From Escherichia coli (GTDB lineage: Bacteria > Pseudomonadota > Gammaproteobacteria > Enterobacterales > Enterobacteriaceae), in assembly GCF_001677475.2 (NCBI RefSeq), contig NZ_CP015229.1: a stretch of DNA of 64,000 nucleotides. One strand, given 5' to 3'. Below, in pieces: positions 51,693 through 58,402 of the stretch (position 1 is the first letter of the stretch; each line of letters begins with the position of its first letter). Below the pieces are notes generated by a model. The model ran no database searches. It was not told where the DNA came from and saw nothing but the letters and a program-made list of their open reading frames with translations. The position numbers and the translations under genes were made by a program.

Positions 51693-52590
51693 GCACTGGA
51701 AAAACATTACTATTTATAAACTTTCTCGTGAGGCGGATCTGACCGACTTAGAAGATAAAAAGAAAATGATCCTTTTCACGCCATGCGGTAGTCAGGATAT
51801 GGCCAAGTTCGGTTTTGTATCGCCATTTGGTGATAATTCCGAAGTTATCGCTATGCATGGAAATGGTTTTATCCTTGTTGAAGCAAAGCGCGAAACAAAA
51901 ATTCTTCCCCCGCCGGTTATCCAGCGAGCTATTCAAGAAAAAATTGAAAAACTTGAGCAAGAACAAGCGCGTAAACTGAAGAAAACAGAGAAGGATTCCC
52001 TGAAAGACGAAGTTCTGCATTCTCTTCTGCCACGGGCTTTTTCAAAGTTTTCTGTTATCCAGGCGATCTACGATGGTTCAACTAAACGTATCTATATCAA
52101 TGCCAGCGCGCGGCAGGCAGAGGATATGCTCGCACTTATGCGTAAGTCTCTGGGTTCTCTTCCTGTTGTTCCCCTAAGTGTTGAAAATCCCATTGAATTA
52201 ACGCTGACCGACTGGGTACGTGATGGTAGTGCTCCACAGGGATTTCAAATGGGGGATGCGGCAGAACTTAAGGCAGTGCTTGAGGATGGCGGTATTGCCC
52301 GAGTGAAAAAGCAGGATTTGGGAAGCGATGAAATTTCCACACACCTGGAAGCTGGCAAGCTCGTCACTAAGTTGGCACTCGACTGGCAGAACCGCATTAA
52401 ATTTACACTGGACCATAACTTCAGCCTTACCAGCGTCAAATTTGCGGATGAATTGCTTGAGCAGAACTCTGATATTGATAGTGAAGATGTTGCGCAGCGA
52501 CTGGACGCAGATTTCTTCCTGTTGACCAGTGAAATTTCGTGCCTGGTTGATGCTCTGGTAAATGCCCTTGGCGGAGAGGCTAAGCAGTGA
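51685..52590 (+). CDS. RdgC-like recombination-associated protein (hrdC position)
   Basis: 301 aa from ATG 51685; N-terminus [15 protein letters not shown] like RdgC MLWFKNLMVYRL. Confidence 0.7.
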
Positions 52591-55500
52591 AAGAGCTGTG
52601 CTATGGATCTGTTTGCAGTGGAATTGAAGCCGCGAGTATTGCCTGGGAACCGTTGGGTATGCGTCCGGCGTGGTTTGCTGAAATCGAGCCTTTTCCATCT
52701 GCCGTTCTTGCGCTCCGCTGGCCCCATGTCGCCAACCTTGGCGACATGACAAAACTTGCCAAAAAAGTCTTGGCTGGGGAAATCGAATCCCCTGACGTGC
52801 TCGTCGGGGGAACACCATGTTTTACCGCGGGGCATATGGTTCTTTGTAAAAATGGTTATAAACCAATAGAAGATGTTTGCCCTGGCGATTACGTAGTCAG
52901 TCATCTCGGGCGGTTACAACAAGTAAAAAGAGTTGGTTCAAAAATAGCTAATACGGGGTTACTTAATGCCGTTGGGCAGCCTTTAGGTATAAGAACAACC
53001 AATGACCATCCCTTCCTGGCTGTTCGGTGGAAAGCCCAAAACACCCGGAAAAATGGCACATATTTTAAGAGAGAGTTGTTGTCTGAACCGGAATGGCGAG
53101 CAGCATGTGATATGCCGGGATATCAATGGTGCGCTCTAACTAATTTCAATATTGCATCTCCAGATATTTGTTCTCGGTTCTTGTCTGAAGAACAGGCTAT
53201 GTATCTTGCGGGCGCTTATGTTGGCGATGGATATATTAGGAGATGGAGAGGTAAATCTAAGAAGGCGGTTGTTTTTGGCATAAATTGCCAGAAATTGAGA
53301 AAGTTTCATTGCCGCATACCAGAAAACATATTTTCCGTGGCAAGCGAAATCCGAGGGAGCATCAAAGTAACCTTGAATGATACGTGTTATGCCAATTGGC
53401 TTAATGAACATTTTGGCGAGTTAAGCCATGCTAAGCGTATCCCTGCATGGGTGATGTCGCATCCATTGCGTCATGTGTTTTTACAAGGCTATCTTGATAC
53501 TGATGGGACACCAAGTGGTAAAGCGGGATTTAGAATTAATAGTGTTAGTCCTGCGCTTGCTTGGGGCGTTGCGGGGTTGTCACAGACTTGTGGTTATGTT
53601 TCTTCGGTCAGCTTTATTGAAGTTGAGCCCAAAAAAGTGATCGAGGATCGCGTGGTAAATCAACGGAATTATTATCAGGTAACAATCTGCCCGCAGAAAT
53701 TGTCACGTAAATCAAGATTGGCTCATGGAATGCTTTTACGAACAGTCAAAGAGTTTAAATCGGTAGGCCTAGATACTGTATACAACATAGAAGTCGAAGG
53801 TGATCATTCCTATATCCTCAATGGTGCGGTGGTCCATAACTGTCAGGCATTCAGTATCGCGGGCTTACGTGGTGGGCTTGATGATGAACGCGGCGCGCTA
53901 ACTTTGAAGTATGTGGAGCTTGCAAATGCAATTGACGACAAACGGTCTGAGTCCTTCCTCAAACCGACAGTTATCGTCTGGGAAAATGTCCCAGGAGTCC
54001 TGTCATCGGCAGATAACGCCTTCGGATGTTTCCTTGCCGGATTGGCTGGAGAAGATGCGCCATTTGAACCAGGTGATCGACCTGAATCAGGAAAAAGTAA
54101 CGCGTTCTGGCGGTGGGATGGCAAAACCGGTTGCCATGCTCCAAAGTGGCCGCAGTGTGGTTGTATTTATGGACCGCAGCGAAAGGTGGCCTGGAGAATC
54201 CTTGATGCCCAATACTTCGGAGTGGCACAACGACGCCGACGCGTGTTTGTTGTCGCAAGTGCTCGAACAGACCTCGATCCCGCAACGGTACTTTTTGAGT
54301 TCGAAGGCGTGCGCCGGAATATTGCGCCGAGCCGAAAAAAGAAGGAAATCGCTTCCGCCATTATTGCAAATGGCGCTGCAATCAGTGGCGAAAGCCTAAA
54401 TCCATGCCTACACGCTGACATGCCACCCGGTATGAAATCGACGAAAGCCGTAAACGCTTTCAGGATGGCGGCATTTGGGGAATATATTGACGATGAAACC
54501 GCATCGACAGTAAAGGCAAGAGATTTTAAAGATGCCACTGACCTTGCCGTTTTTAGCAGCACAGGAGCAGGTTTTTGGTCAGAAGGGCATGGTACATTGC
54601 GGGCACGTGAGCAAGAAAGCCATGAGCATCTTGTTACATTGGCTTTTCCTGAGCGTATGAGCGGTACACAACATGCTGCAACTAAGAATACTTCACCATC
54701 TCTAATGGCTAAAAATCCAACAGCTGTTTGCTATGAAGTAAGAAACGCAGAAGTAGCTGTCCGCCGTCTTACCCCTGTCGAATGTGAAAGGCTGCAAGGT
54801 TTTCCTGATGGGCATACGTTGATCCCGACGGAAAAGCGTAAAAAAGTTAATTCAGATGAACTGGCATATCTTCGCAATCACTATCCAGATTTAAGCGAAG
54901 AAGAGGCCGCGATGCTTGCAGCTGACGGACCGCGTTACAAAGCGATCGGCAATAGTATGGCAATACCAGTAATGCGCTGGATTGGCGATCGGATTACTAA
55001 GGCCGTATGTCGGCAGAAAGAAGGAAGTGAAACAAAAGAGCGAAAAGTTAAACCAGCGGCAGAATTCGAACGGTCCATATTCAAATGGGCTGGTGGAAAA
55101 TTTGGTGTTCTGGAACAAATCTTTCGCTATTTGCCAGAAGGGAAGCGCCTGATTGAACCTTTCGTTGGTGGCGGAGCTGTCTTCATGAATGCCGGATACC
55201 AGGAAAATCTGCTAAATGATGTGAATGCTGACCTGATTAACTTTTACAAGACTCTGCAACGCGAGGCGCATTCACTTATCACTCTGGCACATCGTTTCTT
55301 CCAGGACTACAACACACAGGAAGGATACCTGGCAGTACGGAATGCGTTTAACAAACAAGTCTATGATGATTTACATCGCGCAGCGGCGTTTTTGTTCCTG
55401 AACCGACATTGTTTTAACGGATTGACGCGTTACAACCAGGCCGGTGAGTTCAATGTCGGTTACGGGAAGTATAAAACTCCGTATTTCCCATTACAGGAGA

Positions 55501-55844
55501 TGGAAGCCTTCCTCGGTGCGGAAGGGCGGTCTGAGTTTGTATGCGGTGATTTTGCAGCGGTGATTGAAGCTGCCGGAGAAGGAGATGTCATCTTTTGCGA
55601 TCCGCCGTATGAACCGCTTCCAAATACAGAGGGATTCACGAACTATTCCGGTCATGACTTTAAGTTTGAAGAGCAAAAACGCCTGGTGTCTCTGTTGACG
55701 GATGCTCATCGTCGAGGTGCAAAGGTTCTCATTACTAACAGTGGCGCGCCAAACATCAGAGAGCTTTATCATGACAGTGGCTTCAGAGTGGAACCTCTTT
55801 TTGCCAGACGTTCTGTGTCTTGTAAGGGGACACTCGAGGTGTAG
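52587..55844 (+). CDS. bifunctional DNA methyltransferase: C5-cytosine domain (interrupted by intein) fused to Dam-like N6-adenine domain
   Basis: 1085 aa; C5 motifs GGTP/CQAFS, ENV, QRRRR, RLQGFP, GNS; Dam motifs [10 protein letters not shown] and DPPY. Confidence 0.8.
52818..53840 (+). other. intein with LAGLIDADG homing-endonuclease domain inside the methyltransferase
   Basis: 341 aa from CFTAGHMV to GAVVHN followed by +1 Cys; TTNDH block; [11 protein letters not shown] and [11 protein letters not shown]. Confidence 0.7.
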
Positions 55845-55863
55845 CTCATGACGTTTTGGGTAT

Positions 55864-55880
55864 ATTGCTCTAATAAATTT
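55864..55880. promoter_or_regulatory. C1 operator 17-mer, perfect consensus, upstream of tRNA-tci-ban operon
   Basis: ATTGCTCTAATAAATTT. Confidence 0.55.
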
Positions 55881-56053
55881 ATTAGTGTAATATCGCCTCA
55901 ATGAATCGTGATTTATAGAGCGATTTAGCTGTTAGCCGCGACAGGCGCGGCGGTAAGCATGGCTGGGCCTAGTCCTCCCAGACAAACCACCGAGTTGCCA
56001 GGTTGACCATGCGCCTAAGTGGCAACGCCGAAGTGCGTTACGAGCTTCCAGTT

Positions 56054-56080
56054 TGCCCATCTTCGGGTGGGCGTTTTTTT
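56054..56080 (+). terminator. terminator-like hairpin in operon leader
   Basis: GCCCATC-TTCG-GGTGGGC then T7. Confidence 0.4.
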
Positions 56081-56545
56081 CAGGGTTTTCGTCATAGTTA
56101 GCGACTTTGCGGCGGTTTAGAAACTGACCATTAAAGTAAATGCAAACGATGATCTGATGATGGTAGCGGCCTAAGAAGCCAGATGCCACGGGGTATGAGT
56201 CGTCCCCCGTCAAAAAATCGACCGCAGAGTGTCCCCGTCTGTGTATTAGGGAACGGGGAGGCACAACAGGTAAGGGCGCTGGTGTGATTAACCAGATGAA
56301 CGAGAAGGGGCCATCTGTTGGTCAGCGTCCTTTCCTGTTGCGTTTTCTTTTCAGCGTAACAGCGGTGCTTAACAGCACTTTGGGTACAGTTCCACGAATT
56401 TACGGGTATATCCCGTCATGCTGAAGGCGCTAATCACGCTGGAAGCCAGGGTTGTGCATCCCCTGTTACCGAATTGCAGCCAGGGCGCGGTGCGCCGAAA
56501 AGCATACGGAGGTGGAAGCCCTCGCCGGAGACGTACCCGGCAAGT

Positions 56546-56621
56546 GATGGTGTAGCTCAGCGGTTAGAGCGGTTGACTGTTAATCAACGGGTCGATGGTT
56601 CAAATCCATCCACCATCGCCA
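56546..56621 (+). tRNA. tRNA-Asn (anticodon GTT)
   Basis: Cloverleaf folded by hand; anticodon loop CTGTTAA; T-loop GGTTCAAATCC; encoded CCA. Confidence 0.85.
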
Positions 56622-56623
56622 AT

Positions 56624-56699
56624 GCCGGTTTAGCTCAGTTGGTAGAGCGCCTGCCTTGTAAGCAGGATGTCAGCGGTTCGAGTCCGTTAATCGGCACCA
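56624..56699 (+). tRNA. tRNA-Thr (anticodon TGT)
   Basis: Cloverleaf folded by hand; anticodon loop CTTGTAA; T-loop GGTTCGAGTCC; encoded CCA. Confidence 0.85.
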
Positions 56700-57626
56700 G
56701 CACAACAGGTAAGGGTATTTTGCGACGTCGGAGATCGCCGAGCTTGGCAGAGGGTTCGAATCCCTACGAAGTACCCTTACCGTTGTGATGAATGCGCAGG
56801 CTGATGCGCGAAAGACATTGCAGCTATTGCGGAAAAGAGCTGTTCGGCGGGGCAATTAAACGCCCGTGAGAGTCTGAAATAACCGCAAGCCGGAGATCAG
56901 CACCGGTCATCACAACACAACAGGTAAGGGCATTCTCCCTTATGGGGCTTGGCTTAAATGCATCGAGTGCTCTTACCGTTGTGATGAAGTGCAGCTCTTT
57001 GAAGCAACCAGAAGATAAGCATCTGGCTTCACAACATAAACCGCAGGAACGACCAATAAACGGTAGTCCGTATGGAGAACACCCCGTTGAGGAAGAGGCC
57101 TGGCCGGAACCGTAACCGGCACTACAACGTTGAGAACACTGGCGTAACGGGGTCATATCCCAATCTACGAATAAATGTTGCGTTGCAGCGTGACAACCAG
57201 TGTTCTCAACATTGTGGTGAATGCACAGGCTGATGTGCCGCAACTACAGTAGTGCGCGCTTTGCGGGGCTTGCTACAACCCTGTGTCGGAGTTCAGCACC
57301 GACCATCACAGTTTGATTCTCTGGCATGAGCATAACGCTGAAATAAGTCCAGTCTGGTGCGGCCCGATCACCCGCCGTTAGCTCCACGAAACGGAGCACG
57401 TAACAGGTAAGAGCATTCTCCTGTAACGGGTTCATATCCCAATCTACAGGTCCACCAGGAATGCTCTTTCCGTTGCGGTGAATGCGGCTAAGCGCACGCG
57501 GGGAAATGGTTATATCTGTCCATTATTTCTCCTTATTTCCCCGTCCACGGTGGATAACCAGCCAAAGGACACCGGGAGGCACCCGGCACCGCAACCTTAT
57601 TTCCCAACCAGTAATGAGGTTAATAA

Positions 57627-58326: not shown

Positions 58327-58402
58327 GGCCCTTTAGCTCAGTGGTTAGAGCTGGCGACTCATAATCGCACGGTCACCGGTTCAAGTCCGGTAGGGGCCAC
58401 CA
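58327..58402 (+). tRNA. tRNA with CAT anticodon (Met or lysidine-dependent Ile)
   Basis: Cloverleaf folded by hand; anticodon loop CTCATAA; T-loop GGTTCAAGTCC; encoded CCA. Confidence 0.8.

Follow-up and report, generated by a model that had tools for sequence, protein, structure and literature searches.

A probable class-1 LAGLIDADG intein in the catalytic loop of the bifunctional DNA methyltransferase Dmt of a P1-like element in Escherichia coli

The window analyzed here is a stretch of 64,000 nucleotides (nt) of the E. coli contig NZ_CP015229.1 (assembly GCF_001677475.2), in which the methyltransferase gene dmt carries an in-frame insert that is very probably a class-1 intein with a LAGLIDADG homing endonuclease domain. 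The dmt open reading frame (ORF; 52587-55844, on the plus strand like all features located below unless stated otherwise) encodes a precursor of 1085 amino acids (aa), which is composed of a C5-cytosine methyltransferase N-half, the insert, and a Dam-type N6-adenine methyltransferase C-half. Its GTG start overlaps the stop codon of the upstream gene rdgC/hrdC, and the gene order (uhr, hrdC/rdgC, dmt, then the ban operator region, tRNA-Asn and tRNA-Thr) is that of P1. In a DNA search of phage genomes the ORF matches dmt of phage RCS47 along its entire length at 99.5% identity and that of vB_EcoM-Ro157c2YLVW at 99.0%, while the reference P1 genome (NC_005856) covers only 69% of it, in two pieces. 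These matches identify the ORF as dmt of the P1 phage family.

The adenine methyltransferase domain (55068-55829, residues 828-1081), with one of the motifs quoted in the earlier reading at 55155-55184 and DPPY at 55596-55610, is recognized by Pfam PF02086 (D12-class N6-adenine methyltransferase; residues 834-1066, E = 2.9e-56) and by NCBIfam TIGR00571 (dam; 245 bits, 8e-73). NCBIfam also assigns the dcm family, and the match of the ORF to Pfam PF00145 (C-5 cytosine methylase) is broken into three pieces, of which the first ends at residue 78 and the second begins at residue 419, both at model position 71. Upstream of the break lies an N-extein of 77 aa (52587-52817), which ends with the first half of motif IV, VLVGGTP (52797-52817, proline codon CCA). 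Downstream of it, the remaining C5-methyltransferase module (53841-55067, from Pfam and motif mapping) starts with CQAFSIAG (53841-53864), and the first residue of this C-extein, Cys+1, is the motif IV cysteine. Further along, motif mapping placed ENV at 53976-53996, QRRRR at 54225-54248, RLQGFP at 54786-54806 and GNS at 54942-54962, and a variable target-recognition region was located by allele comparison at about 54341-54900. Once the insert is removed in silico, the C5-methyltransferase motif series (Pro-Cys loop, ENV, QxRxR, GN) is present in order.

The insert itself, 1023 base pairs (bp) at 52818-53840, sits between Pro77 and the motif IV cysteine (GGTP/CQAFS, the slash marking the insertion point) and translates in frame, with no stop codon, into 341 aa running from CFTAGHMV to GAVVHN. 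An earlier, sequence-only reading of the window had proposed an intein at this motif IV Pro-Cys, pointing to the N-terminal cysteine, a TTNDH block, two LAGLIDADG-like motifs and a terminal HN followed by Cys; the coordinates, the translation and all the motifs it quoted are present. When the insert was aligned with ten related database inserts (24-52% identity), Cys1, Thr61, His64, Lys206 and Asn341 proved invariant across the 11 inteins and Asp137, Asp229 and His29 nearly so. The first splicing block, with Cys1 in CFTAGH (52818-52856), aligns with PI-SceI residues 1-43, and its C1, F2, A4 and G5 are unchanged throughout the alignment. The second block (52986-53015) holds the TxxH motif TTNDH with T61 and H64. 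The first LAGLIDADG motif, LAGAYVGDG with D137 (53199-53237), aligns with LLGLWIGDG of PI-SceI, and the second, LQGYLDTDG with D229 (53475-53510), aligns with FLAGLIDSDG; between them, the conserved lysine region with K206 (53424-53453) aligns with the lysine of GVKNIPSF in PI-SceI, chain residue 301. We take the counterparts of D137 and D229 to be D218 and D326 in the published PI-SceI numbering. The terminal splicing blocks (block F and the one after it, 53778-53840) end with His340-Asn341, and the HN/C junction was mapped to 53820-53843.

Profile libraries describe the insert in the same terms. Pfam Hint_2 spans precursor residues 77-126 (5.7e-6), LAGLIDADG_3 spans residues 298-361 (2e-3), Intein_splicing matches at 9e-3, and NCBIfam TIGR01443, for the C-terminal splicing region of inteins, reaches 28.9 bits where its curated cutoff is 15.6; in PHROGs, the insert matches only the intein-bearing part of a ribonucleotide reductase family. 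A profile built from the 11 inteins matched the solved structures of PI-PkoII (6.9e-14) and PI-SceI (1.6e-12), lining up both catalytic aspartates and the lysine with those of PI-SceI. An AlphaFold2 model computed from the same alignment has a mean predicted local distance difference test (pLDDT) of 92.1 and a predicted template-modeling score (pTM) of 0.89. The best PDB folds for this model are all intein homing endonucleases, namely PI-SceI (E = 2.7e-17), the TliVMA intein (template-modeling score, TM, 0.63), PI-PfuI and PI-PkoII. Prp8 mini-inteins also match it, and on its central domain Foldseek finds the free-standing LAGLIDADG enzymes I-DmoI, I-SceI and I-OnuI-type. The predicted structure contains a Hint fold, in agreement with Pfam Hint_2, and the model also contains a pseudo-dimeric alpha-beta-beta-alpha-beta-beta-alpha endonuclease fold. 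Cys1, the TxxH motif, the His-Asn end followed by Cys+1, and the in-frame insertion at a conserved site with intein-less homologues are the features of a class-1 intein. We conclude that the insert is, with high probability, a canonical class-1 intein with a LAGLIDADG homing endonuclease domain, lodged in the catalytic loop of a P1-family Dmt.

The insertion site was examined by comparison with alleles lacking the element. An alignment of the window protein with reference P1 Dmt (754 aa) shows one clean gap of 341 columns, between ...GTP and CQAFSIAG..., with exteins 99% identical. The checks suggested along with the earlier reading that could be run, for intein-free homologues with a clean gap and for matches to intein models, all favored it. 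Splicing in silico restores a continuous PF00145 match over residues 8-135 with 75.6 bits, compared with 25.5 and 28.4 bits for the split halves, and the restored motif IV loop GGTPCQAFS aligns with the PCQ loop of M.HhaI. The M.HhaI cysteine in this alignment is, by established knowledge of the family, the catalytic nucleophile Cys81. The earlier proposal of a double role of Cys+1, as second splicing nucleophile and as C5 catalytic cysteine, is sound as far as C5 activity is concerned. It had further been claimed that methylation as such would depend on splicing. This can be kept for the C5-cytosine activity, which alone should be splicing-dependent, and not for the adenine activity, since Dam forms a module of its own at the C-terminus and is probably functional in the unspliced precursor as well.

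In the reference P1 sequence (NC_005856; c1-100 mod749::IS5), codon 74 of dmt encodes Trp in place of the conserved second glycine of motif IV. It thus reads VWGTPC, compared with VGGTPC in all other alleles examined (codon 52806-52808 in the window), and C5 activity may be impaired in this laboratory strain.

The following course of events is proposed. The 1085-aa precursor would be translated, and an N-S acyl shift by Cys1 would turn the Pro77-Cys78 bond into a thioester. This thioester would be attacked by Cys+1 (precursor residue 419), after which Asn341, assisted by His340, would cyclize and release the 341-aa intein; an S-N shift would then complete the joining of the exteins, giving a Dmt of 744 aa in which the GGTPCQAFS loop is whole. 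Since the same Cys+1 would afterwards attack C6 of the cytosine, C5 methylation would require splicing. Intein-free dmt is the predicted target of the excised intein, or of the precursor, with a cut at ...GGAACACCT/TGTCAGGC... when two P1-like elements share a cell, and repair from the intein-bearing copy would spread the intein. The clean insertion, the motifs, the predicted fold, the host domain restored in silico and the population pattern are observations; splicing, the endonuclease activity and its target are inferred. In intein-free dmt, the junction reads ...GTCGGGGGAACACCT/TGTCAGGCATTCAGT..., with a GGTACGCCT variant in P1 and P7.

The intein is widespread in P1-like elements. Its DNA is found in 132 PLSDB plasmids from E. 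coli, Salmonella, E. albertii, E. fergusonii and Shigella, at full length in 125 of the 132 and nearly always at 99% identity or more. A 300-nt empty-site query, made of 150 nt from each side of the insert, matched 496 PLSDB plasmids, with an uninterrupted junction in 363 of them; the junction was also found in 491 of 5426 complete E. coli genomes and is uninterrupted in 339. Over both collections, the share of P1-like dmt genes with the intein is thus roughly 27-31%. A P1vir laboratory stock (GenBank OP279344, 1501-4542) has it too, in a P7-type dmt of 1013 aa, so that this widely used transducing stock differs from reference P1 in both the intein and the target-recognition region. The intein-bearing ORF is annotated as a single coding sequence in nearly all PLSDB matches, and the product names in the records do not go beyond "Dam family site-specific DNA-(adenine-N6)-methyltransferase", "Dmt" and "DNA methyltransferase"; none of the intein-bearing dmt database records examined names an intein. 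The open-access literature searched for intein together with P1, Dmt, P1-like, phage-plasmid, Punavirus, RCS47 or C5/cytosine methyltransferase does not describe the element, which agrees with the earlier reader's statement that none had been described in P1-family methyltransferases.

Related inteins occur at the same place in other hosts. Searched against the protein database, the intein has relatives of 47-52% identity at the GGxP/C...HN/CQxxS site of other C5 methyltransferases, one of them a Mannheimia haemolytica protein (P0011) present on 578 contigs, and others of about 30% identity in actinobacterial enzymes, where the equivalent position reads SPE/C...N/CTNHS. An exhaustive profile search over 1.84 billion cluster representatives gave 4280 proteins with E ≤ 1e-30. 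In 96 of the 150 best matches the intein stands in a ...P/C...N/C(Q/T) setting, some 70-90 residues after the N-terminus and hence in C5 motif IV, and by this count the motif IV Pro/Cys is a heavily used intein insertion point. Going by these relatives, the site is not an unusual one for inteins, because they occupy the same position in many other C5 methyltransferases. Some top profile matches (P0152, P0068, P0050 and others) are up to 4920 aa long with 6-12 separate intein-like stretches; these very long matches appear to be multi-intein proteins in metagenomic data.

The closest of these allelic inteins, from proteobacterial C5 methyltransferases (P0007, P0009, P0010, P0012 and P0011), share with the window intein the insertion point, the termini CFTAGH...VVHN/CQ and the block structure, at 47-52% identity. 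They differ in that their hosts are single-function C5 methyltransferases of other taxa and that several copies are truncated or decayed, and we found no paper describing them. In the Mannheimia haemolytica protein the extein ends 20 aa past the intein, and in Rodentibacter pneumotropicus (P0024) the annotated methyltransferase begins within the C-terminal part of the intein; both Pasteurellaceae copies look decaying or mis-called.

Among known systems, a recent survey lists C-5 DNA methylases as intein hosts in actinobacteriophages (bioRxiv 10.1101/2025.01.02.630785); the passages retrieved from it by term give no insertion site. These inteins share the host family (IPR001525/PF00145), the phage setting and LAGLIDADG endonucleases with the window intein, and differ in coming from phages of Actinobacteria, whereas the window intein resides in a bifunctional C5 and Dam protein of an enterobacterial P1-family phage-plasmid. 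A survey of mycobacteriophage inteins lists only N6/N4 methylases (PMC5050341), and the words methylase and methyltransferase are absent from a survey of bacterial inteins (PMC4760082).

PI-SceI (the yeast VMA1 intein) and the archaeal TliVMA, PI-PfuI and PI-PkoII are built of a Hint and a LAGLIDADG endonuclease domain like the window intein, with an alignable catalytic Asp pair and Lys, and PI-SceI also shares the Cys1 and Cys+1 chemistry. Identity to these is only 11-16%, hosts and organisms are different, and PI-SceI measures 454 aa compared with 341 aa. The nearest intein-free proteins, P1 Dmt (YP_006537.1) and P7 Dam (AAQ07538.1), have exteins 97-99% identical to those of the window and the same position between hrdC/rdgC and the ban operator/tRNAs; they lack the 1023-bp insert and have the proline codon CCT rather than CCA, and reference P1 has Trp74 in place of Gly74.

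Comparison of dmt alleles provides several signs of mobility. The GC content of the intein is 43%, versus 55% and 49% for the exteins. The intein is found together with both forms of the target-recognition region, the P1 type (window and RCS47) and the P7 type (OP279344, whose exteins are 97% identical to P7 Dam), and both types also occur without it; the right flank in the window is that of intein-free P1. Between the window and OP279344 the intein shows 0 differences in 1023 nt, as opposed to differences of 3.8% in the proximal C-extein and about 27% in the recognition region. Seven intein-bearing alleles, all with an unbroken intein reading frame, differ pairwise by 0.83% on average in the intein, by 4.0% in the N-extein and by 2.3% over the first 500 nt of the C-extein, which makes the intein 3-5 times less diverged than its immediate flanks. 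The proline codon is CCA in all seven intein-bearing alleles and CCT in all eight intein-free ones. This third codon base, adjoining the insertion, is the only position strictly linked to the intein; the flank single-nucleotide polymorphisms (SNPs) at -7 to -48 on the left and at +21 to +66 on the right are not. Three left-flank SNPs that had seemed fixed were dropped as markers when more alleles were added, and only the proline third base stayed linked. Such a pattern would be expected if gene conversion had repeatedly started at the insertion site and its co-conversion tracts were short and variable in length. From these comparisons, homing of the dmt intein is likely but not proven, given the strong mosaicism of P1-like genomes and a divergence of only 1.0% in hrdC.

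The gene dmt is itself a mosaic of exchangeable modules. The two forms of its target-recognition region, the P1 type and the P7 type, are about 28% diverged in DNA and of unequal length, and in one E. albertii allele the Dam domain is about 9% diverged.

Some observations weigh against a spliced intein that still homes and controls an active C5 enzyme. In genomes as mosaic as these, where a neighboring gene such as hrdC is so little diverged, the low divergence of the intein could have arisen by ordinary homologous recombination. Substitutions within the intein in the P1-like population amount to 3 nonsynonymous and 2 synonymous per pair, with no synonymous bias; with only five substitutions per pair, the ratio of nonsynonymous to synonymous rates (dN/dS) is uninformative and does not demonstrate that selection acts on the intein at present. 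The C5 activity of P1 Dmt is itself putative. Proline at the -1 position hampers the first splicing step in some engineered inteins, a concern that is offset by the fact that Pro-1 is kept throughout this intein family.

Part of these points can be accommodated by a genuine splicing intein whose endonuclease is inactive, at a late stage of the homing cycle, and which has spread vertically and by ordinary homologous recombination. We consider this possible and rather unlikely. The mosaic genomes, in which neighboring segments differ widely in divergence (hrdC 1.0%, the Dam domain up to 9%), the lack of a synonymous excess among the intein substitutions, and an intein-bearing fraction that is intermediate (about 27-31%) rather than near fixation are all compatible with it. 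However, both LAGLIDADG aspartates and the conserved lysine are intact and are kept across relatives that are 24-52% identical, and the endonuclease domain is modeled with high confidence. In addition, the intein stands in several left and right flank backgrounds, with crossovers from a few bases to about 24 nt away from its ends, as double-strand-break repair at the insertion site would produce.

Another alternative is that splicing is defective or very slow and the C5 half permanently off, the gene being retained for its Dam domain alone. It would account for the fact that Dam, a separate C-terminal module, is the sole Dmt activity with a documented role, and a predicted late promoter inside the P7 gene might allow Dam to be made independently. 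The proline at -1, unfavorable in some inteins, and the Trp for the motif IV glycine in reference P1, which suggests that C5 activity is dispensable in the laboratory, point the same way. Against it stand the splicing residues, C1, T61, H64, H340, N341 and C+1, which are all canonical and conserved, and the downstream C5 motifs, which are intact and 99% identical to those of intein-free alleles. Moreover, about 96 of the 150 closest cluster representatives hold the intein at the same Pro/Cys site with intact termini, which would be unexpected if insertion there killed the host enzyme. We therefore judge this alternative to be improbable, and a splicing-competent intein to be the better description of the insert.

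The documented function of the Dam half deserves mention here. P1 needs Dam for pac-site methylation and packaging, and the P1 GenBank record states that Dmt methylates "perhaps at C5 cytosine". The P7 record predicts a late promoter, LPdam2 (2489-2507 in that record), inside the gene and ahead of the Dam domain, from which, should it be genuine, the Dam half could be made alone, independent of the intein.

A further variant keeps splicing but makes it conditional, for example redox- or temperature-sensitive via Cys1 and Cys+1. The precursor would then be a Dam-only enzyme, C5 methylation would be turned on after splicing, and the intein would be a domesticated regulator instead of a pure parasite. 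We hold this to be a long shot. If true, it would provide P1-like elements with a post-translational switch that parts packaging-related adenine methylation from anti-restriction cytosine methylation.

That the insert is no intein at all, being instead a lineage-specific methyltransferase subdomain, a bacterial intein-like (BIL)/Hint domain, or an intron-like or insertion-sequence element, is extremely improbable, as the weakness of the single Pfam E-values (Intein_splicing 9e-3, LAGLIDADG_3 2e-3), which is all that favors it, is met by strong profile and fold matches to PI-SceI-type inteins. Individual candidates of this kind were also rejected on their own grounds. A normal methyltransferase subdomain or target-recognition region is at odds with intein-free alleles that are 99% identical on both sides, and the real variable region lies downstream; a BIL/Hint domain is at odds with the endonuclease domain, the Cys+1 and the location in the most conserved loop of the host enzyme, since BIL domains are Hint domains that lack an endonuclease, usually have no +1 nucleophile and reside in variable proteins. 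As for a group I/II intron or other structured RNA, Rfam at gathering thresholds found only two tRNAs over 52000-57000, and the insert is in frame without a stop.

The dmt intein is thus a new, unannotated element of an already known type and not a new mechanism, and the known intein mechanism is unchanged by it. Its interest lies in the setting. P1 is among the classic phages used in the genetics of E. coli, and resistance genes are commonly carried by P1-like phage-plasmids; the present database entries for the intein-bearing proteins (1013-1095 aa) mask a mobile element and overstate the size of the mature protein. With both kinds of allele at hand, E. coli and P1 offer a natural and tractable system for intein homing and for splicing in vivo, and because one cysteine would be both splicing nucleophile and catalytic residue, the question of whether enzyme activity is controlled by splicing can be posed cleanly here.

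Several minor observations concern the gene and its surroundings. The run of G at 55826-55829 near the end of dmt is a G4 in the window compared with a G5 in P1 and RCS47, and this 1-bp deletion swaps the last 14 aa of Dmt for 4 (window end ...SCKGTLEV, then stop). It may be either real or a recurring homopolymer sequencing error, since the exact 1085-aa protein is present in NCBI as WP_244585985.1. Opposite-strand ORFs of at least 100 aa (52245-52904 and 52198-52818) touch only the first 87 nt of the insert, with none in its remainder, and are taken to be non-coding overlaps of hrdC and the start of dmt. Downstream of dmt, tRNA-Asn(GTT) and tRNA-Thr(TGT) are found at 56546-56621 and 56624-56699, as in P1, and a third tRNA with a CAT anticodon lies about 1.6 kb beyond this pair, at 58327-58402.

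On a larger scale, the P1-like sequence extends from about 31,920, where the par/rep region begins, to 64,000. The part before it, from position 1 to about 31,900, is a Mu-like prophage with a GC content of 57-59% over much of its length and with genes for a DUF935 portal, a DNA circularization protein, the tail sheath and the tape measure. Among complete E. coli genomes, these approximately 32 kb of Mu-like sequence match only chromosomes, and the exact window Dmt protein occurs on a 5.5-Mb contig. Because of these two observations, the P1-like element may be joined to or integrated in the chromosome, beside or via the Mu-like phage.

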